Assembly: GCA_036517275.1 (NCBI GenBank)
Contig: DATDXD010000009.1
Coordinates: forward strand, 1 to 45,065
Length of the DNA stretch: 45,065 bases
Source: Minisyncoccota bacterium
GTDB lineage: Bacteria; Patescibacteriota; Minisyncoccia; UBA11713; 2-01-FULL-45-33
Reading direction: 5' to 3'
Shown: piece by piece, positions 8,797 to 45,065 of the stretch
Numbering within the stretch: the stretch's first letter is position 1
Layout: each line of letters starts with the position of its first letter
Notes under the pieces: model-generated
What the model saw: only the letters and a program-made list of their open reading frames with translations
The model's database searches: none
Told to the model about the DNA's origin: nothing
Position numbers and translations under genes: made by a program

Positions 8797-8827
8797 ACAA
8801 AAACAAAAGAGCGGCTAGCGCCGCTCT
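8797..8827 (-). terminator. Intrinsic terminator after the SLT-like gene
   Basis: Minus strand forms AAGAGCGGC-GCTA-GCCGCTCTT followed by TTGTTTTTGT. It overlaps the TAG stop at 8815-8817. Confidence 0.7.
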
Positions 8828-9945
8828 TGCACAAAACTTTTTTCAAATTCTTCCAAAATTTTCCGTGTTTCTCTGTATTTTTTTATAAAATTCTGAGTTT
8901 CTTTTGGAATACGTTTCCCTTGCAGAAAATTCAAGGCTCTTCCCAAACCCCCATTATGGGCAACAATGGCCGCTTCTTCATTTCTTTTTTCTTTTGACAT
9001 TTGGGCGAAATTCGTGTCAGCAAGACAAACAGCGGATTTAATAGAATTTTTCATGTTGGCGGTGCCACTTTCAAAATCAGCTATCAAACCAACTTCAGGA
9101 TACTTCCCACGAACTAAATCATATGTGCGAATTTTTTTACTATTCATAAATTGCATGAGTCCCCGAGCGCCGTCGGAACTTATTGAATAATAAAACGCTT
9201 TTTCTCCGTTACGCGCGATATGCGCCAAAAATTTTTTTATTGCGTATCGCGAATTGTTAAAAAATTCTCCATCGTCCATTTGTTCAATTGTACCCAAAGC
9301 CATTATTGTTTCGTCTGAAAAAACCTCGCACAAAAGTTTCTGCGGATACGCTTTAGATTTTGCGCCTGTTTTGCAAAGCTCCCGCCGAGATTCTTCAATA
9401 ATCGCCCGATAAATTACCAAACCCTTTTTTGTAAAATATTCGTCTTGAAAAAAATCAGAATAAGGCGCGTAAAAAAGGTCGCGGGGAGAAGTTCTTTTAT
9501 TTTCCAAATGAAGATGGCGAGAATCCCAAACAATAAGACTTTCATGATTTTGTTTATCGTAAATGCTAAATTCCAAACGAGTTACGCCAAAACCGGCAAT
9601 TCTTTTGACATCAAAATTAGAAACCGTGGACACGCCCGTGTCTTTTACTTTAAATTTAAAAGATCCGTCAGACAAAGATTTTGGCACAACAACTTCCAGT
9701 TTTATCGGTATCAAGTGTCCGTTTTTGAGAGAATACGCTATGAGTAAAATTTCCCGCGAAACTATTCTGGAACTTTTTCCTTTTCCAACAATTTCAAAAA
9801 AAACACGATCTTTTTCTAGCATCTTTCTGGCTTCCAAAAATTTTTGTTCAAAAACATTTGGATCAATTCCTTGGGTATAAACACTTTCCGTTAAAATCAG
9901 TAACACCATTAAAACAACCGACGCAAACAAAATAACTTTTTTCAT
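8815..9945 (-). CDS. Secreted protein with a C-terminal lytic transglycosylase (SLT/GH23-like) domain
   Basis: 376 aa with a signal peptide. EKAFYYSISSDGARGLMQFM matches the SLT pattern E-x13/14-GLMQ. The downstream AAIVAHNGGLGRA resembles the AYNAG box. Confidence 0.6.
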   Translation of the reverse strand: MKKVILFASVVLMVLLILTESVYTQGIDPNVFEQKFLEARKMLEKDRVFFEIVGKGKSSRIVSREILLIAYSLKNGHLIPIKLEVVVPKSLSDGSFKFKVKDTGVSTVSNFDVKRIAGFGVTRLEFSIYDKQNHESLIVWDSRHLHLENKRTSPRDLFYAPYSDFFQDEYFTKKGLVIYRAIIEESRRELCKTGAKSKAYPQKLLCEVFSDETIMALGTIEQMDDGEFFNNSRYAIKKFLAHIARNGEKAFYYSISSDGARGLMQFMNSKKIRTYDLVRGKYPEVGLIADFESGTANMKNSIKSAVCLADTNFAQMSKEKRNEEAAIVAHNGGLGRALNFLQGKRIPKETQNFIKKYRETRKILEEFEKSFVQERR

Positions 9946-20292: not shown

Positions 20293-20333
20293 AATCCATT
20301 TAGGTGTCCAACACCTAAATGGATTATTTTTTT
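20293..20333. terminator. Bidirectional intrinsic terminator between convergent genes
   Basis: 15-bp perfect stem AATCCATTTAGGTGT-CCA-ACACCTAAATGGATT, flanked by A-run and T-run (ATTTTTTT downstream on the plus strand). Confidence 0.75.
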
Positions 20334-23316
20334 AAAAATTCCAACCTTTTGATATGTAGAAATCTGGAACTCGTTTTTTGAATTTTTCCAACTCTCTCCA
20401 AGCAAATACATAATTGAGACCAGCGAACTGAGCGCCAATTCCCAATGACACACCCTTTTGAACTGGAAATTTTTCGTTGCTGAATTTCGCAAGAGCGTAA
20501 TCCGCGAACAAAAAACTTCTTATTGGTCCCAAGGCAATTCCACCGGGAAAAACAACGGCATCAATAAAAGGAAAACGCAATTCCGCACTTCCATAAACAA
20601 CTTGATTTCCAGCAAGATATCCAAATGGGTAAGTTTTGAGAGTGGCATCTCCACCCATAATAATATAATCGCCCATCGCACGTGAACTTTGAAGACCACG
20701 CACATTAAACGCCAATAAACTTCCTTCACTTAACCTTTTATATCTCCTGTAGTCAAAAGAAAAGGTTGTATAACCCTTGGTATTTTTAAATCCCAAAGGA
20801 GGGGCAACTTCAAAGTTAAATCTTGCGGCATTACCATGAATTGGTCCTTGGGTAGCGTAAGAATACAAAACAGTATCTCTTACAAAAGAAGTGGAAAAAC
20901 TAGCATTGAAACCTTTAGAATTTTTGAAAAAGTTATAAAACTGTTTATCTGTGTCACTAAAATATTCTGGAGATTCCTCAATAACAGAATCGTCAATAAA
21001 TACTTCAAAATTTCTCTTTTCAAAACTAAACCCTGTTTCAACTCTTGTAAATTTACCGAAGAGATAACTCCCAAAAACATCCCCGCCAATTTCGTCTCCA
21101 ACAGTATAATTGAACAATGTTTGATTGGCATAACCTTTTATCGGATCCCATTTTAGATATTGAAGTGGTAACTTGTGGTTATAAAAATCAAAACCCCAAT
21201 TCAAACGCTTTTCGCGATTCAAATAACTAAAATCTATCAATCTAAAATAACTTCCATTAAACGCAAATCCAATTTGAAAAAGATTGTTTTCTTTAATATC
21301 CGAAATTCCTTTCAATCCATAACCAAACATTCCCCAATAATTACTTAACCCCAAACTTACTTCTCCTTCGGACATTTTCCATCTTTTAGGAGGAACAGTT
21401 TTATTTTTTATTTGATTCTCATCAATAACACTAGAAAATAAATTAAATGGTCTCCAAGCGTAAACCATGTTTTCCGCTCTTTTTTCTTCAGTATAAGAAT
21501 ACAGGGGTTCCTTAAATTTCAAACTATAAATTTCAAAATTTTTGTATATTTGATTTCTAAACTGGTCATACGGCCAAAAAACTATCGCCGCGATTTCTCC
21601 AGAAGAATCAGGAATTGGTTTTGGCAAAAAAGTTCCTCCAAAAAATTCCGTCCATTGCTTTACTTCTTTTGTTTCAATATCAATAGTAACAATATTCCAA
21701 GCGCTATTTCTTTCATCAGAAGTAAAAACAATAGTATGATCATCCAAAAAATACGGAGAATCTTCATTGTGCCTATTAAATGTCAGCTGACGCTTTTTCA
21801 TTGTTTCCAAATCAAGCAAAAATAACTTTTGAAAATCTCCATCAAACGCAACATATGCGATAATTTTTCCGTTTAGTGATATTGCAGGGGCAGTGTCAAA
21901 ATTTGAATCTTGAGTTAAATTTTTAAATTCCTGTGTCAAAAAATCAAATTCATAAATATCGCGGGTTGCGTTTTGAGACGCTGAAAAATAAATTTTCTTT
22001 CCGTCCGGACTAAAAGTGGGGGAAAAAGATTGGTCATATGGAATTTTAATTTTGGTAAACTTATTTTCTTTGTCCGCATCAACCAAAAATAATTCGTGAT
22101 CTCTTCCTTTTCTAGCAAAGAACGCGATTTGTTGACTAACGGGCGACCACGCAATATCCCCACCATTAAACGGCCAAGTATTTCCGCGCTGGGAAATAAC
22201 ATACTCAAAATCGTTTGGTGGAAAATGTGAAGTCAAATTTTTTATTTTTGAATCAGTACCACCAGACAAAGCATAAGTTATAACCGAAACACCATTTTTT
22301 TGAGGAGACAGAACCGCAACATCTTTTCCATCTGAAGAAAAGGTAAAAGACAAAATTCCGAATGGTAATTTACTATTGGTTATGTTTGTTCCTGAAAAAC
22401 TTTTTTCATTTTCGTAAGGCTTCTGGCTTAATCTCATTTCTTGGGCGTATTTGTTGCTCCAAAAATCTCTGTGTTTTCTATCAAACAATTCTGGATTTTT
22501 TTGCGGATCCGGAATATCTCCATTGGTTAGTTCTTCAATCAGCTTTCCAAGATTCTTTCCGGAACTTTTTATACCTTTTGTCTTAAACTCAACTCCAACA
22601 TGATATTTTTCTTCCAAAAATTCAAAAACCATTGCCCATTGCCCATAAGGGTCTGCTTGATCAGACATAAATCTTTCCCAAGTCGGCAAAAACAACTCTG
22701 GATTTCCAGCATCGGTGCGTTGATTAATTCGTCTTAAATCATCACGAGTATGCGGGACATAAAGAGAGGCGATAAATTCAGCTCCACCCTCTATAAATCC
22801 ATTGGGAAACGGTAATGTGCCAGTAGTTTTATTTAAAAAACCTCTTTTGAGAATACTGAACTGAAAACTATGCACAAGTTCGTGGACAACCATTGATTTC
22901 ATGAGTGGAAGAGAAAAATCGGCTTTTAGCACCATTCTATTTTTTTCGTTTTCAACAAAAGCGCCGACTCCTTCCGGTAAAAATTCCATAGTTATGTTTG
23001 TACTTTCAAACTCACTATGGGTTTTGTACATCATGATCGGAATTTTTTCTTTTATTTCAAGGTTAAAAAGAATACTCAAAGATAAATGAGCACTTTCCAA
23101 AATAGACAAAGTTTCTTCAAAAAATTTTTTTTGGGAAAAATCGTTCAAATCAAGAGAATGCCAAACTTCAAAATGCTCACTTTGGTAAAAATTCTGCAAA
23201 GATTTTTCATATACAACCTTGTTTTTTCCAAAAGGACCAAATTCATCCGTTTGCGCCAAAGCCTCAATCGGCAACAATACCAAAACAACAATCATCAAAA
23301 ACAACAGTTTCCTCAT
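20332..23316 (-). CDS. Large exported multidomain protein: MA-clan metallopeptidase-like domain + PD40/TolB-like beta-propeller + C-terminal Omp85-type beta-barrel
   Basis: 994 aa. Signal peptide ends ...IEALA/QT. HELVH followed by FIEGGAEF (HExxH...EGxAE gluzincin pattern). PD40-like repeats FSSDGKDVA, WSPVSQQIAF, FSPDGKKIYFSA, ISLNGKIIAYVA. The C-terminal roughly 350 aa show alternating beta-strand patterns with GGDATLKTYPFGYLAGNQVVYGSAELRFPF...FLFADYA...SLGIGAQF and a terminal ...KGWNF. SD GAGGTGA precedes the start. Confidence 0.6.
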   Translation of the reverse strand: MRKLLFLMIVVLVLLPIEALAQTDEFGPFGKNKVVYEKSLQNFYQSEHFEVWHSLDLNDFSQKKFFEETLSILESAHLSLSILFNLEIKEKIPIMMYKTHSEFESTNITMEFLPEGVGAFVENEKNRMVLKADFSLPLMKSMVVHELVHSFQFSILKRGFLNKTTGTLPFPNGFIEGGAEFIASLYVPHTRDDLRRINQRTDAGNPELFLPTWERFMSDQADPYGQWAMVFEFLEEKYHVGVEFKTKGIKSSGKNLGKLIEELTNGDIPDPQKNPELFDRKHRDFWSNKYAQEMRLSQKPYENEKSFSGTNITNSKLPFGILSFTFSSDGKDVAVLSPQKNGVSVITYALSGGTDSKIKNLTSHFPPNDFEYVISQRGNTWPFNGGDIAWSPVSQQIAFFARKGRDHELFLVDADKENKFTKIKIPYDQSFSPTFSPDGKKIYFSASQNATRDIYEFDFLTQEFKNLTQDSNFDTAPAISLNGKIIAYVAFDGDFQKLFLLDLETMKKRQLTFNRHNEDSPYFLDDHTIVFTSDERNSAWNIVTIDIETKEVKQWTEFFGGTFLPKPIPDSSGEIAAIVFWPYDQFRNQIYKNFEIYSLKFKEPLYSYTEEKRAENMVYAWRPFNLFSSVIDENQIKNKTVPPKRWKMSEGEVSLGLSNYWGMFGYGLKGISDIKENNLFQIGFAFNGSYFRLIDFSYLNREKRLNWGFDFYNHKLPLQYLKWDPIKGYANQTLFNYTVGDEIGGDVFGSYLFGKFTRVETGFSFEKRNFEVFIDDSVIEESPEYFSDTDKQFYNFFKNSKGFNASFSTSFVRDTVLYSYATQGPIHGNAARFNFEVAPPLGFKNTKGYTTFSFDYRRYKRLSEGSLLAFNVRGLQSSRAMGDYIIMGGDATLKTYPFGYLAGNQVVYGSAELRFPFIDAVVFPGGIALGPIRSFLFADYALAKFSNEKFPVQKGVSLGIGAQFAGLNYVFAWRELEKFKKRVPDFYISKGWNF

Positions 23317-40789: not shown

Positions 40790-41296
40790 ATGTCTCAAGA
40801 ATCATTTTTAAACCCAGATACAATTGTGGATGAATGGGATGTTCGTCCGGGGGAGGTTGTTGCCGACTTTGGCGCGGGTTCCGGATTTTTTTCCGTAGCT
40901 TTGGCAAAACGAGTTGGATACGCGGGAAAAGTTTACGCTTTGGATATTAGAGAGGAGGCGCTGGAAGCTGTTCGCTCCCGAGCAAAATCATTTAGACTTT
41001 TAAACATTGAAACAATTAAAGCGGATCTTGAACGCGAACGCGGTTCAACTTTAAAAAATGAAACAATGGATAAAATTGTAATCTCAAATATACTATTTCA
41101 AGCTGTAAACGGCCAAAGTATAATAATAGAAGAAGCGCGCAGAATATTAAAACCAAACGGATTGGTTTTTGCGATAGAATGGAAAGATAAAATAAAAAAA
41201 GAAGAAACTGAAAGATTATTTGAACTCGCGGGATTTAAAAAACACAAAGAATTCGTCGCGGGCTCGCATCATTATGGAATTATTTTTAAGAAATAG
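40790..41296 (+). CDS. Class I SAM-dependent methyltransferase
   Basis: 168 aa with SAM-binding motif I VVADFGAGSGFFSVALAK, post-I DIRE, and motif LKPNGLV. Confidence 0.75.
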   Translation: MSQESFLNPDTIVDEWDVRPGEVVADFGAGSGFFSVALAKRVGYAGKVYALDIREEALEAVRSRAKSFRLLNIETIKADLERERGSTLKNETMDKIVISNILFQAVNGQSIIIEEARRILKPNGLVFAIEWKDKIKKEETERLFELAGFKKHKEFVAGSHHYGIIFKK

Positions 41297-42607
41297 GTGT
41301 TGGAAGCTATGAATATCAACAAACTGCAAATAATATTAATCGGGGGGGCGGTGTTTTTAACGCTTATTGTTGTTTTAATTTTTTCCGGAGTTCTTCCGGG
41401 ACTAAAAGACAATACGCAAGAATCCGCAACACTTGAACTTTGGGGTTTTGACGACGATAGGGTTTGGGATCAAACGCTTCGCGCCCACAAAGATGAAAAT
41501 CCAAAAATAACCGTAAACTACAAAAGAAAAACTTTAGAAAACTTTGAGACGGAACTTTTAAACGCGATTGCCCGCGGAGATTCTCCGGATATTTTTATAC
41601 TTCCGTCCGAATATTTAAAAAAATTTGAGGACAAAATTTCTTCCGCTCCCCCAATTTTGATTACCGAGCGAGAAGTAGAACAACAATTTGTGGAATCAGC
41701 AAAACAGTTTCTAACGCCCCAAAAAAAAGTTTTGGGAATACCTTTATACGCGGATCCTTTGGTCCTTTACTGGAATAAAGACATATTTACACGAGAAAGC
41801 ATCGCTTTACCACCAAAAACTTGGGACGAGTTTCTCCAAATATCCCAAAAAATAACCAAAAAAGACAATGCCGGAAATATTACAGTTTCAGGAGCCGCGC
41901 TTGGGAGGGCAAAAAATATAAAAAACGCCCCAGCAATTTTAACGGCGCTTTTTTTGCAGTCGGGAGAAAAAATTATAAATGAAGAAAATGAAGTTGTGTT
42001 GGGTGAAAGCGTGCGCACCGGAGAAGTCAGCTTGCGCCCCGCGGAATCCGCTTTGAGATTTTTTAGCGAGTTTGCCGACTCCGGCAAAACATCGCATAGC
42101 TGGGTGTCTTCCCTACCAGAAGCGGAAGATTTGTTTCTTTCCGGAAAATTGGGAATGTATATTGGATTTTCTTCAGAATACGAGCAGATGCGCAAAAAAA
42201 ACCCACACACGGCAATAGGCATGGCGCATCTACCTAACCTTAATTCGGAAAAAGCAACATACGGATCAGTTTTCGCGCCAGTAGTTCCTTTGGCTTCGCA
42301 AAACTACACGGCATCGTGGCAATTTATAAAATTTTTAACTTCAAAGGAAATATCCAAACTTTTTTCTGACTCCCAAATGAGCGCTTCCCCCAGAAGAGAC
42401 TTATTTTCTTCGTATCAAAGTGATTCTGTTCGTTCGGTTTTCGCAGAAAGCAACTTATCGCTTAAAAGTTGGCCAAATCCAAATCCAACAAAAACAAACG
42501 CAATATTCTCTGAACTTATGGAAGATATGGCTCGGAAAATTGACACAATGCGGGCGCTTCTTACAAAAGCTGCGAATAAAATTAGAGAAATAAACAAAAC
42601 AAGGTAA
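41297..42607 (+). CDS. Membrane-anchored extracellular solute-binding protein (ABC SBP family 1-like), orphan
   Basis: 436 aa with an N-terminal TM anchor instead of a lipobox. The pattern LELWGFDDD...SPDIFILPSEYL...YWNKDIF...PKTWDEF is typical of sugar-type SBPs. No permease or ATPase is adjacent. The real start may be the ATG at 41309. Confidence 0.65.
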   Translation: MLEAMNINKLQIILIGGAVFLTLIVVLIFSGVLPGLKDNTQESATLELWGFDDDRVWDQTLRAHKDENPKITVNYKRKTLENFETELLNAIARGDSPDIFILPSEYLKKFEDKISSAPPILITEREVEQQFVESAKQFLTPQKKVLGIPLYADPLVLYWNKDIFTRESIALPPKTWDEFLQISQKITKKDNAGNITVSGAALGRAKNIKNAPAILTALFLQSGEKIINEENEVVLGESVRTGEVSLRPAESALRFFSEFADSGKTSHSWVSSLPEAEDLFLSGKLGMYIGFSSEYEQMRKKNPHTAIGMAHLPNLNSEKATYGSVFAPVVPLASQNYTASWQFIKFLTSKEISKLFSDSQMSASPRRDLFSSYQSDSVRSVFAESNLSLKSWPNPNPTKTNAIFSELMEDMARKIDTMRALLTKAANKIREINKTR

Positions 42608-43479
42608 TGCAAGAATCTTTAGCGCAACTTGTCACTTGCGGAATTGGTGAAGGCACAACATTTAAAGCCTGCACAATTTGCGATATTTGGGTTTTGGCAG
42701 ATAAAATCGTGAACTTTGTCTGGTTTTTGGCAACTCCAATTTTAATAATTATACTTATTGTTGGCGGATTTATTTATTTAACTTCTGGCGGAAATCCAAA
42801 AAAAACCGAGCAAGCAAAATCACTCCTTACTTCCGCGATTGTTGGAATTGTAATTTCCCTCGCTGCGTTTTTGATTGTGGATACGATTTTAAAAACATTG
42901 GTTCGTCAAGACTTCACATGGCCTTCGTGGAATACAATAACCACAAGTAGCTGCCCCAAGCCTCTTGAACCCACACCAGTTGATTTGTCTAAATTACCGA
43001 AGCCGATAATTTTAGGAAACGCCGGAACACTCGCATCAGAAGAAGAAGCCAGAAACGCACTTGAAGGATTTTCAGGAGTCGGAGAACGGGTAAGTATCAA
43101 TAAAAGACCTTGCGCTTGCTCCTTGCGAAACGATCCGCGATGCGCCGACTGCACAAATACCGCCGGTCTTCCCGCAAGCACGATTAACTATCTTCGTTTA
43201 CTTCAAGAATACTGTGCTTCGGGACAAATTTTAAACTGCAAATTTGTTCTTTCCGGCGGAACAGAATCTCATCTTCATTCCGAAAACACAAGACACGCCC
43301 CGGGAAATACAGTAGTTGATGTGGTGCCAAACACGCAAACCCAAGCAATTTATCAAGCGCTTATTAGTGCGGCGCAAAATATAACCACAACCGCAAGATG
43401 CGAAAACAGAGACAGTGAGACAATATCAACTTGTGCCGTACCTTCAACAAACCATATTCATTTTGAATTTAGACGGTGA
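42607..43479 (+). CDS. VirB2/TrbC-like (T4SS-pilin-like) membrane protein fused to a Cys-rich C-terminal domain with an LAS/M15-like zinc-peptidase motif
   Basis: 290 aa. The N-terminal roughly 100 aa have two TM helices flanking YLTSGGNPKKTEQAKS, like the three downstream paralogs. The C-terminal roughly 160 aa have about 9 Cys, RHAPGNTVVD (H-x7-D) and NHIHFEF (HxH). The start overlaps the SBP stop (TAATG). Confidence 0.5.
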   Translation: MQESLAQLVTCGIGEGTTFKACTICDIWVLADKIVNFVWFLATPILIIILIVGGFIYLTSGGNPKKTEQAKSLLTSAIVGIVISLAAFLIVDTILKTLVRQDFTWPSWNTITTSSCPKPLEPTPVDLSKLPKPIILGNAGTLASEEEARNALEGFSGVGERVSINKRPCACSLRNDPRCADCTNTAGLPASTINYLRLLQEYCASGQILNCKFVLSGGTESHLHSENTRHAPGNTVVDVVPNTQTQAIYQALISAAQNITTTARCENRDSETISTCAVPSTNHIHFEFRR

Positions 43480-43491
43480 TATAATATCCCT

Positions 43492-43770
43492 ATGCTCCAA
43501 AATCTACTAGCCGCGATCACAAACCCGCTAAAAGCCGACGATATACCGGCACTTATTTTAAGTATTGCGGAGTTTGCTCGCAATATTGGCCTCCCTATTG
43601 CTATAATATTCATAGTCTATAACGGCTTTTTGTTTGTATCCGCCAGAGGAGACGAAAAAAAGCTTGAAACGGCAAAAGCGGGCATCAAATGGTCTTTAAT
43701 AGGCGCCGCGCTTATTGTGGGAGCCAGCTTTTTGGCAGAAGCGGTTGTTAACTTTGTAAAAGAATTTTGA
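43492..43770 (+). CDS. VirB2/TrbC-like mini-pilin paralog
   Basis: 92 aa with TM1 (LPIAIIFIVYNGFLFV), loop SARGDEKKLETAKAG, and TM2 (LIGAALIVGASFLAEAV). TGATATAAT ends 6 nt before the ATG. Confidence 0.6.
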   Translation: MLQNLLAAITNPLKADDIPALILSIAEFARNIGLPIAIIFIVYNGFLFVSARGDEKKLETAKAGIKWSLIGAALIVGASFLAEAVVNFVKEF

Positions 43771-43825: not shown

Positions 43826-44164
43826 ATGAATAAAAATTTATTAAAAATAGCCGTAAGCGCAGGGGCAATTTTGCCGCTTTTTGCGTTCGCGGCGGATGTA
43901 TTCACTGTATTAGACACAGTTGAAGACGTTATCGCGCGCATAATCCCGATTATAATGGCAGTTGCCACAATCATATTTTTGTGGGGAATTGTTATGTATA
44001 TCACAGCGGCGGGAGACGAAAAGAAGGCGGCAACGGCAAAATCATACATTACATCCGGTCTCATTGGCCTATTCTTCATGGTCGCGATTTGGGGAATAGT
44101 TAAGGCATTGGTTGCCACATTCGGCGTAGGCGGAGAGGGTATCCCAGTAGGACCCGGAAGATAA
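43826..44164 (+). CDS. VirB2/TrbC-like mini-pilin paralog with signal peptide
   Basis: 112 aa. Signal ends ...LFAFA/AD. Core IIFLWGIVMYITAAGDEKKAATAKSYITSGLIGLFFMVAIWGIV. C-terminal tail GIPVGPG. Confidence 0.6.
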   Translation: MNKNLLKIAVSAGAILPLFAFAADVFTVLDTVEDVIARIIPIIMAVATIIFLWGIVMYITAAGDEKKAATAKSYITSGLIGLFFMVAIWGIVKALVATFGVGGEGIPVGPGR

Positions 44165-44200: not shown

Positions 44201-44572
44201 ATGAAAAAACCATTGGCTATTTTAACTGTTTGGATGTTGCCTATTTTAGTATTTGCGCAAACAACTGGCAAACTAAGCGGAACAGCCGTTGGTAATTGGC
44301 TTGATATTATATTTGATATTGTAGGATTTGCCTCTTATCTTTTGATGGGAATAGCAACGGCAGTATTTTTGTGGGGAATGGTTAAATATATAATGGCTGG
44401 AGCGGATGAAAAAGCCAAAGAAGCGTCAAAGGGCTATATAAAAGCTGGAATAATCGGTTTGTTTTTATCTCTTGCGGTTTGGGGAATAGTATACGCAATA
44501 GCTAGAACATTTGATGTGGCAGATAGCGGAATACCGTTTGGTCCTGGGAACTTAGATCCGAGAAAACAATAA
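44201..44572 (+). CDS. VirB2/TrbC-like mini-pilin paralog with signal peptide
   Basis: 123 aa. Signal ends ...LVFA/QT. Core AVFLWGMVKYIMAGADEKAKEASKGYIKAGIIGLFLSLAVWGIV. C-terminal tail GIPFGPG. Promoter-like TTGCGC, 17 nt, TAACAT, then 6 nt to the ATG. Confidence 0.6.
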   Translation: MKKPLAILTVWMLPILVFAQTTGKLSGTAVGNWLDIIFDIVGFASYLLMGIATAVFLWGMVKYIMAGADEKAKEASKGYIKAGIIGLFLSLAVWGIVYAIARTFDVADSGIPFGPGNLDPRKQ

Positions 44573-44601: not shown

Positions 44602-44639
44602 CCCCGCCTCCTTCTTCTGAAGGGGCGGGGTTTGGTTTT
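44602..44639. terminator. Bidirectional intrinsic terminator after the pilin array
   Basis: CCCCGCC(T)CCTTC-TTCT-GAAGGGGCGGGG followed by TTTGGTTTT. T-rich on the opposite strand as well. Confidence 0.75.
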
Positions 44640-44648
44640 GGGAAAAAG

Positions 44649-45065
44649 TTACTTTGGAAAGTAGACTAATTTCCCCTTTCTTTCTTCTTCTTTTATCTTG
44701 TCTGCCGCACTTGTGGCAGCGCTTTCAACTGCTTTCCGAAAATTCCGATTTTCACCAACGCCAACCGCCATCTCAAGATCTCCTTGAGATAACGTGACGT
44801 AGACGACAGATTCCGGATCAGAATAGCACTGCCGACGATACCCGTCGTAATTTGGGCACCGTAAACGGTCTCGAAGGAAAAACTTTATCTCAACGGTAAG
44901 TGTTCCTTCGACATTTTGCCTGGTGACCTTAAATCCTTTGTCACCCAGCACCCGAGACACTTCCTGCCGCGCCAGACTGGCTTTCTCCGCAGTCTGGTCT
45001 TGCGACAAAACTGTCGAATCGGCAGAACCTCGATCGCCTCGCTGGCTACCAAACAGTCCATTGAA
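44649..45065 (-). CDS. Hypothetical protein, 5'-partial (the frame stays open to the window edge)
   Basis: The reading frame is open from 45065 down to the stop at 44649. The track Met is a TTG, and upstream codons (FNGLFGSQRGDRGSADSTV) have no stop. The region is markedly more GC-rich than its neighbours. No family recognised. Confidence 0.45.
   Translation of the reverse strand, partial: FNGLFGSQRGDRGSADSTVLSQDQTAEKASLARQEVSRVLGDKGFKVTRQNVEGTLTVEIKFFLRDRLRCPNYDGYRRQCYSDPESVVYVTLSQGDLEMAVGVGENRNFRKAVESAATSAADKIKEEERKGKLVYFPK

Follow-up and report, generated by a model that had tools for sequence, protein, structure and literature searches.

We analyzed a 45,065-nt stretch of DNA from a Minisyncoccota bacterium (contig DATDXD010000009.1 of GenBank assembly GCA_036517275.1), which is referred to here as the window. 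A cluster of genes that share one orientation is found toward its right end and is made up of a methyltransferase gene, a gene for a solute-binding protein (SBP), a fusion gene, and three small pilin genes. The fusion gene (42607..43479, + strand) is the subject of this report. It encodes a 290-aa protein in which a VirB2-type pilin module is joined through a linker to a domain predicted to have a Hedgehog/DD-peptidase-like fold of the LAS group (lysostaphin, D-Ala-D-Ala carboxypeptidase, and Sonic hedgehog). An earlier note made from the sequence alone had called the gene product the first paralog of a pilin-like series and had likened its C-terminal part to the zinc site of LAS/M15-type peptidases. 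The labels “first paralog” and “pilin-like” are correct, since four consecutive genes, the fusion gene first, each match the Pfam type IV secretion system (T4SS) pilin family T4SS_pilin, PF18895 (E values of 1.8e-10, 5.7e-12, 1.5e-8, and 2e-9). In the fusion protein the match covers aa 27 to 93 and scores 41.2 bits, against a gathering cutoff of 26.6.

A full-length AlphaFold2 (AF2) model of the fusion protein, built from a 35-sequence alignment (predicted local distance difference test score [pLDDT], 82), has a long helical hairpin, a low-confidence Pro-rich linker, and a confident globular domain at aa ~141 to 290. The protein begins with a net acidic segment (aa 1 to 23; 42607..42675) that contains C11 and C22. 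The pilin module follows (aa 24 to 99; 42676..42903), supported by the PF18895 match, the full-length model, and hydropathy. The flexible Pro-rich linker of ~40 aa (aa 100 to 140; 42904..43026; pLDDT of 59 to 71 in the full-length model) separates the hairpin from the Cys-rich C-terminal domain (aa 141 to 290; 43027..43476), for which the Hedgehog/DD-peptidase (LAS) fold is predicted.

All of the sequence strings quoted in the earlier note are present in this open reading frame. CPKP begins at C116, CACSLRNDPRCADC spans aa 169 to 182, YCASGQILNC spans aa 202 to 211, SENTRHAPGNTVVDV spans aa 225 to 239 (nt 43279 to 43323), ARCENRDSETISTC spans aa 263 to 276, and NHIHFEF spans aa 282 to 288 (nt 43450 to 43470). 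About nine cysteines had been counted in 43057-43479 (aa 151 to 290); eight lie there, all of them within the C-terminal domain, and the ninth, C116, is upstream in the linker, where it is conserved in a CP.P motif (consensus of the full-length alignment, W...C..P). The protein has 12 cysteines in total, and the remaining three are N-terminal: C11, C22, and C25, the last at the start of helix 1. There are only five histidines (positions 222, 224, 230, 283, and 285), and every one falls inside one of two motifs. Motif 1, SGGTESHLHSENTRHAPGNTVVD (aa 216 to 238; 43252..43320), holds G217, T219, E220, H224, H230, and D238, all of which are invariant in relatives; motif 2, H283-I-H285 (43453..43461), sits in the last predicted β strand (aa 281 to 288). 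A frameshift or an assembly error as the origin of the fusion was considered and rejected, because the same architecture turns up in dozens of separate clusters and, for the relative P0002, in six independent contigs.

Structure prediction, one of the checks proposed in the earlier note, gave a confident model of the C-terminal domain (aa 137 to 290; 38-sequence alignment; pLDDT, 90.5; pTM, 0.86). When this model was searched against the PDB with Foldseek, ranks 1 to 37 were all Hedgehog N-terminal domains (Shh, Ihh, Dhh, and fly Hh), the “S” of LAS, with probabilities of up to 1.0, a TM score of ~0.47, ~104 aligned columns, and E values of 7e-3 to 0.1; matches after rank 37 had probabilities of <0.15. 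Hedgehog N-domains were again the best matches when the full-length model was used. Among viral models (BFVD), the best matches were annotated “Peptidase” (E value, 8e-4) and “Peptidase M15A, C-terminal,” and further ones were tape-measure and gp5-type tail lysins and a “cell wall hydrolase.” The predicted elements run helix, strand FVLSG, His-rich loop, strand VVDVVP, helix, strand, and strand HIHFEF, which is the order in the Shh N-domain (helix, ..., helix, WVYYES, HIHCSVK), its secondary structure being that of 1VHH; the Shh sequence itself was checked against PDB 6e1h. In an hhalign comparison, the family pattern TGGTE..H..H..G..VD was placed on a stretch of Shh in a register that sets H230 on the Shh zinc ligand (H140 in human, H141 in mouse), D238 on D147/D148, and H224 on H134/H135, the second His of Shh “GHHSEE.” The match to the single Shh sequence was short and statistically weak (E value, 0.01). 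The assignment to the LAS (Hedgehog/DD-peptidase) fold is supported at the level of predicted fold and motifs; its basis is the modeled structure and motif conservation, not sequence-profile significance. Of the checks that the earlier note had proposed, those carried out did not refute its idea.

When 1.84 billion cluster representatives were searched exhaustively with HMMER (cutoff, E ≤ 1e-3), 47 proteins with the C-terminal domain were found; a word-indexed homologue search had returned close relatives only (three and then five proteins). One of the 47, P0005 (1,718 aa), was left out of the analysis, being a repeat protein that matches a short helix region only. It carries 16 tandem repeats of ~57 aa, each of which falls on profile positions 40 to 67 (the “EEARxALEG...INK.PC” helix region), and the match may be spurious or may mark a repeated submodule. 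Most of the others are 270 to 340 aa long and carry the domain at the C terminus, behind a pilin-type hairpin; among full-length members, nearly every one combines pilin and domain in this way. The survey of recurrence suggested in the earlier note thus returned the fusion in 47 cluster representatives, with P0005 counted as spurious.

In the alignment of 38 relatives, mean column identity is 23% and only eight columns are invariant: C182, G217, T219, E220, H230, D238, H283, and H285. H224 shows no variation in the full-length alignment either. The pattern [ST]GGTE-x(2-11)-H-x7-D occurs in 48 of 49 members, P0049 having x6 in place of x7, and an H-x6-D spacing was also read directly from the sequences of P0038 and L013, a locus described below. 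A His lies three or six residues before the ligand His in 45 of the 49 members and at other offsets in four, and an HxH is found ~50 to 77 residues downstream, near the C terminus, in 48 of the 49. One subgroup has HWD in place of HxH and GGSE in place of GGTE. As judged from the sequences, this conservation of motifs is far beyond chance, and the residues that matter most to the proposed zinc site (H230, D238, H285, and H283) proved invariant in distant homologues when their conservation was checked. Among the cysteines of the domain, C169 and C182 are family-wide, C203/C211 and C265/C276 belong to subgroups, and C171/C179 are lineage specific.

The C-terminal domain had no significant match in Pfam, NCBIfam, PHROGs, or PDB sequences, and literal membership in M15, M23, or HH_signal fails by sequence model in Pfam, NCBIfam, and PDB sequences. 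Weak matches to the Pfam families “Metalloenzyme” (E values of 0.046 to 0.14) and DUF6573, confined to one member each or to short stretches, and to the PDB thiolase 6aqp (E value, 0.06; the only letters in common are “GGTE”) were set aside as chance, and no confident match to an unrelated family appeared. The domain is a new, unmodeled family within a known superfamily. Because it is absent from Pfam, NCBIfam, and PHROGs, its members are annotated merely as “hypothetical” or “pilin”; the label in public sources is “hypothetical protein.” As a side observation, the animal Hedgehog proteins P0070 and P0076 have precomputed matches both to HH_signal (PF01085) and to Peptidase_M15_3 (PF08291); these two families overlap, and the domain described here matches neither.

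In our interpretation, H230, D238, and H285 are the proposed ligands of one zinc ion, and H283 is a proposed catalytic-type His. We consider it probable, on the strength of the predicted fold together with the context described below, that the fusion protein is a zinc peptidase of peptidoglycan, tethered to the membrane or to a pilus, that would cleave the wall locally for passage of a pilus or T4SS, a role like that of VirB1.

As judged from its sequence, the pilin module is of the conjugative VirB2/TrbC type and is not a type IV pilin. Besides the PF18895 match, it has a weak match to the Mbov_0395 pilin-like family of NCBIfam, and the hairpin of the full-length model weakly matches the archaeal conjugation pilin 8dfu in Foldseek. 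The hairpin is formed by aa 24 to 58 and aa 64 to 99, and hydropathy places two hydrophobic cores within it, centered at aa 38 to 55 and aa 79 to 91. The loop between them, TSGGNPKKTEQAKS, is basic (three K/R residues versus one D/E). On the basis of this charge pattern (the positive-inside rule) and of homologues that bear a leader, we infer an N-out, loop-in, C-out topology, which would leave the Cys-rich domain outside the membrane and make the N-terminal segment (aa 1 to 23) extracytoplasmic.

In most homologues (e.g., P0003, P0004, L007, and L008), the module is preceded by a signal peptide. No hydrophobic leader is present in the window protein or in P0002, both of which begin MQESLAQLVTCG. 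An upstream in-frame start was looked for in their case and there is none, because the ATG of the fusion gene overlaps the stop codon of the SBP gene (TAATG), an arrangement that also suggests translational coupling of the two genes. In this leaderless lineage, the N-terminal 23 aa with their cysteines would have to cross the membrane without a signal peptide.

Genomic loci of relatives were retrieved with a narrow alignment. All seven loci recovered are from Patescibacteria: an unclassified metagenome-assembled genome (MAG; 71% identity), Giovannonibacteria, two Moranbacteria, two contigs labeled Saccharibacteria, and Adlerbacteria. Close contigs, the MAG, and the Giovannonibacteria locus, whose fusion protein is 33% identical, all preserve the order methyltransferase, SBP, fusion, small pilins. 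In Moranbacteria and in one of the Saccharibacteria contigs (L011), the fusion gene lies near yidC/rnpA/dnaA, and in L011 it is two genes downstream of a gene for a VirB4-like P-loop_TraG ATPase. A protein of ~380 to 420 aa is conserved directly downstream of the fusion in these same loci (L009:4448-5698 and L010:8020-9153, Moranbacteria; L011:3517-4770); its C-terminal ends are similar (...LY/FF.N/D...L.RI.L), and there is a faint hint of a PD40 β-propeller.

The Adlerbacteria locus (L013, MEXB01000008) and a near-identical contig (L012) contain a LAS-like fusion of the variant type, with H-x6-D and with HWD for HxH (L013:501-1502; L012:9-500). The next gene encodes the pilin module fused to a lytic transglycosylase domain, SLT (PF01464; L013:1510-2697; L012:508-1644). 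The pilin modules of the tandem Adlerbacteria genes are 81% identical over 155 aa, the SLT matches of the pilin-SLT fusions have E values of 1.3e-9 and 1.7e-13, and the E-S and G.MQ motifs are visible in the SLT head. In addition, a Moranbacteria fragment encodes a pilin fusion that matches the lysozyme-like SLT_3 weakly. At the level of sequence, the pilin module is a carrier for alternative peptidoglycan-hydrolase heads. Of the contextual arguments for an action of the LAS-like head on peptidoglycan, the strongest is that the same module carries an SLT head elsewhere, and the pilin-SLT sibling, together with the VirB4-like ATPase two genes off in one locus, lends further support to reading the domain as a cell wall hydrolase.

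A single N-terminal module with alternative enzymatic heads in tandem genes is also the cassette pattern typical of polymorphic toxins. One might therefore suppose that the protein is a secreted or contact-delivered antibacterial toxin that degrades walls and that its pilin-like part serves only as an export or trafficking module. We regard this as very improbable. No small immunity-like gene follows the fusion gene, pilin genes coming next instead; both heads are of the housekeeping wall hydrolase type and together mimic bifunctional VirB1 proteins; and synteny with the methyltransferase and SBP genes is stable across distant lineages, unlike that of mobile toxin cassettes.

The genes that follow the fusion gene in the window are three small T4SS_pilin paralogs, all on the + strand: paralog 2 (43492..43770; 92 aa; no leader), with the E value of 5.7e-12 given above; paralog 3 (43826..44164; 112 aa; signal peptide; C-terminal tail GIPVGPG); and paralog 4 (44201..44572; 123 aa; signal peptide; C-terminal tail GIPFGPG). 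The tail G-[IV]-P-x-GPG that ends paralogs 3 and 4 (44120-44161 and 44525-44569) is present in relatives as well (L007:4390-4806 and L008:3389-3745), and by analogy with TrbC/VirB2 it could be a processing or cyclization site.

This arrangement, with the fusion gene placed ahead of three small VirB2-type pilin genes in the window and likewise in relatives, invites a different interpretation. The pilin module might polymerize with the small pilins, so that a peptidase head (with the SLT head in other lineages), displayed at the tip or along the surface of a T4SS pilus, would cut the wall of a host bacterium and open it for attachment, uptake, or effector delivery. The long flexible linker would let such a head project, and some of the viral structural matches are to tail-tip and tape-measure lysins, enzymes that open a wall from the outside. 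Moreover, a Saccharibacterium cannot grow as an epibiont without its T4SS and pilin array (PMC10633639, PMC12857230, and PMC11665869). On the other side, the 190-aa C-terminal extension may clash with VirB2 helical packing, and nothing in the sequence tells the organism's own wall from a foreign one. We consider this interpretation rather unlikely overall. The same doubt attaches to its broader form, in which the VirB2-type pilus of the candidate phyla radiation (CPR) would be an enzymatic drill whose zinc peptidase heads (and, in some lineages, lytic transglycosylase heads), borne by subunits at the filament tip or surface, digest the host wall where the two cells touch; we would give it perhaps one chance in five. 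If true, it would account for the dependence of the epibiotic lifestyle on the T4SS and pilin array.

We favor the tethered peptidase that acts where the pilus or T4SS is assembled, and we hypothesize that it would work as follows. The VirB2/TrbC-type hairpin would insert in the cytoplasmic membrane with both of its ends outside and the basic loop inside, and the Pro-rich linker would hold the disulfide-rich, 150-aa LAS-fold domain on the extracytoplasmic side. There, one zinc ion would be bound by H230, D238, and H285, while H283 and H224, and possibly E220, would activate water and stabilize the transition state as in M15/M23 peptidoglycan peptidases. The enzyme would cut a peptide bond in peptidoglycan stems or cross-links at the place where the pilin array and T4SS assemble, which is the part that VirB1-type hydrolases play in other T4SSs. 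In related genomes, it would be teamed with its sister protein, in which the same module bears an SLT lytic transglycosylase.

Several observations weigh against this assignment. Characterized LAS enzymes have H-x3-D or H-x6-D (canonical range, H-x(3-6)-D). The window protein, exactly as the earlier note had claimed, has H-x7-D and so departs from the canonical spacings. Hidden Markov models (HMMs) for M15, VanY, M23, and HH_signal matched 0 of 38 family members at E ≤ 1, and the comparison of the family with an 18-sequence Hedgehog profile by hhalign extends over 35 columns only (E value, 0.0068; probability, 5.6%). The profile check proposed in the earlier note therefore failed for the HMMs of M15, M23, and Hedgehog and yielded only this weak match to the Hedgehog profile. 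The resemblance to LAS/M15 enzymes claimed there holds for the fold (AF2 and Foldseek) and for the H, D, and HxH motifs, but not for HMM matches or for the spacing between His and Asp. Foldseek E values against the PDB are only ~1e-2, with a TM score of ~0.47, and the geometry of the zinc triad is putative. The general base of Shh, E177, lies four residues before HxH; there is no Glu in the corresponding PSTNHIH of the window protein, and the position is variable across the alignment. E266 is only partly conserved, and the Glu that is invariant in the family, E220, is at another site than Shh E177. Finally, the window protein has lost the signal peptide of its relatives, and no VirB4 gene was found in the window or in the closest contigs.

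The variable general base also bears on whether the domain is an enzyme at all. Vertebrate Hedgehog acts chiefly as a ligand, and it is with Hedgehog ligands, not with bacterial enzymes, that the domain has its best structural matches; the canonical general base is not invariant, and one subgroup has HWD for HxH and GGSE for GGTE, so that the domain might be pictured as a noncatalytic, Hedgehog-like binding module (an adhesin or a ligand of a wall or surface glycopolymer) with a structural metal site. In Drosophila Hedgehog, where peptidase function was lost, H..D and HxH decayed (PMC6027127). Both are kept in 48 to 49 of the 49 members of this family, along with the invariant H224 and E220, and the head of the sister fusion, SLT, is a bona fide enzyme domain. 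A binding module thus seems improbable to us, though less so than a toxin.

An S-adenosylmethionine (SAM) methyltransferase gene (40790-41296), co-directional with the fusion gene, is followed by the gene for a membrane-anchored SBP (SBP_bac_1; 41297..42607, +) immediately upstream of the fusion gene, a pairing that is kept in relatives. No ABC permease gene was found beside the membrane-anchored SBP gene in the window, L001, L007, or L008. A functional link between the SBP and the hydrolase, e.g., capture of wall fragments, is conceivable. Downstream of the pilin array, a GC-rich hairpin (CCCCGCC...GGCGGGG) followed by the T-run TTTGGTTTT was read from the sequence at 44602..44639, between the array and a convergent gene for a 119-aa product (44649-45008). 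This hairpin, which resembles a bidirectional terminator, is likely the end of the operon; a promoter/terminator consensus scan was uninformative, and the hairpin is not in its listing.

Elsewhere, the window is CPR/Patescibacteria-type chromosomal DNA with the housekeeping genes gyrA, ftsZ/ftsA, murJ, and lepA and a class II ribonucleotide reductase gene, in addition to hisS, pth, mfd-like, prfB-like, ftsEX, and signal peptidase genes. Two further genes deserve mention as side observations. At 8815-9945 (− strand), a 376-aa secreted or anchored protein is encoded that has a subthreshold SLT match (E value, 9.6e-4) and GLMQ and AHNGG motifs; from these sequence features, it is likely a stand-alone lytic transglycosylase without a pilin fusion. 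At 20332-23316 (− strand), a 994-aa protein contains PD40 repeats and weakly matches DUF6782, a putative metallopeptidase family.

Patescibacteria make up a large part of bacterial diversity, and, to our knowledge, their sole genetically tractable member needs a T4SS and a VirB2-like pilin array to live; we know of nobody who can say what the Patescibacteria T4SS does or how it gets through a wall. A widespread, CPR-restricted family in which the pilin itself bears a LAS-like zinc domain, or SLT, is a candidate for the missing wall-cutting activity and offers a handle on how CPR pili or secretion machines pass a wall. The finding draws its interest from this open question and from the ease with which it can be put to the test: there is one small soluble domain, with five histidines and clear point mutants to be made. 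With its H-x7-D spacing, the family is in addition a distant bacterial branch of the superfamily to which animal Hedgehog belongs. What is new is the domain family and the architecture; the superfamily, T4SS-associated wall hydrolases, and CPR pilin arrays were known. The earlier note had not recognized the fusion as a described family, and in the literature searched, coverage of which was incomplete so that this is absence of evidence only, we likewise found no description of a pilin-peptidase fusion.

Among known enzymes, the M15 peptidases, the “A” of LAS (M15A D-Ala-D-Ala carboxypeptidase, phage M15A endolysins, VanY, VanX, and L-Ala-D-Glu peptidases), have the predicted fold class in common with the C-terminal domain, together with a His...Asp pair before and at a β strand and HxH in the last strand. 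The chemistry expected of M15 enzymes is zinc-dependent cleavage of peptidoglycan peptides (PMC6027127). The family described here differs in having an invariant GGTE in place of the SGYR-type segment, H-x7-D instead of H-x6-D, an extra invariant upstream His, a Cys-rich domain, and a pilin fusion and in lacking an M15 HMM match. The Hedgehog N-domain is the best structural match and shares the local register TE..(G)HHSE..H..G..VD plus HIH; in contrast to it, the family has no HH_signal (PF01085) match and no conserved equivalent of E177, its H-to-D distance is one residue longer, and the Ca-binding acidic cluster appears to be absent. Bacterial Hedgehog-like domains (bacHh) also occur as C-terminal parts of membrane-anchored proteins (PMC6027127).

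The closest parallel within the CPR is SEML1_0007 of “Candidatus Southlakia epibionticum” ML1, an organism in which the T4SS and pilins are essential for epibiotic growth (PMC10633639 and PMC12857230); as for the Saccharibacterium system cited above, the function of the T4SS and pilin array is reported as unknown (PMC10633639, PMC12857230, and PMC11665869). SEML1_0007 adjoins VirB4 in the essential T4SS locus (PMC10633639, supplements), its C-terminal ~155 aa were assigned to ECOD Hedgehog/DD-peptidase by structure (template 6n7g_C) without a Pfam hit, and its transposon sequencing (Tn-seq) score, GD/ES/ES, marks it as essential at later time points, like the neighboring genes of the locus (PMC10633639). 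It has elsewhere been called a “peptidase homolog” (PMC12102498). The likeness lies in the CPR origin, the T4SS linkage, and the C-terminal Hedgehog/DD-peptidase domain, and the L011 homologue of the fusion occupies the equivalent oriC-proximal, VirB4-adjacent position. SEML1_0007 differs in its length (1,113 aa) and in that no pilin fusion has been described for it, and it was compared with the GGTE...H-x7-D...HxH family by description only.

The other parallels are at the level of the secretion system. In CPR genomes, T4SSs of the MPF-FATA-like type are common and come with arrays of 2 to 11 divergent VirB2-like pilins, 441 such arrays having been counted in 383 assemblies, and it is rare for a clear VirB1 homologue to be linked to VirB4 (PMC12102498). 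The tandem, divergent PF18895 pilins of the window agree with that description (PMC12102498); the published arrays consist of small pilins, whereas that of the window is headed by a pilin with an enzymatic-type C-terminal domain. The VirB1-type hydrolases of monoderms (PrgK, TraG, and TcpG) serve the T4SS with SLT and CHAP domains on a membrane anchor (PMC12102498). The window fusion has neither an SLT nor a CHAP domain, and its C-terminal fold is a different one. Yet the pair of pilin-LAS and pilin-SLT proteins seen in relatives reproduces the VirB1-type combination of a glycosidase with a peptidase, with the differences that the peptidase fold is that of a LAS zinc enzyme instead of a CHAP cysteine peptidase, that the anchor is a VirB2 pilin hairpin, and that the two activities are placed on separate proteins, which makes the likeness to VirB1 one of functional analogy rather than of family membership.

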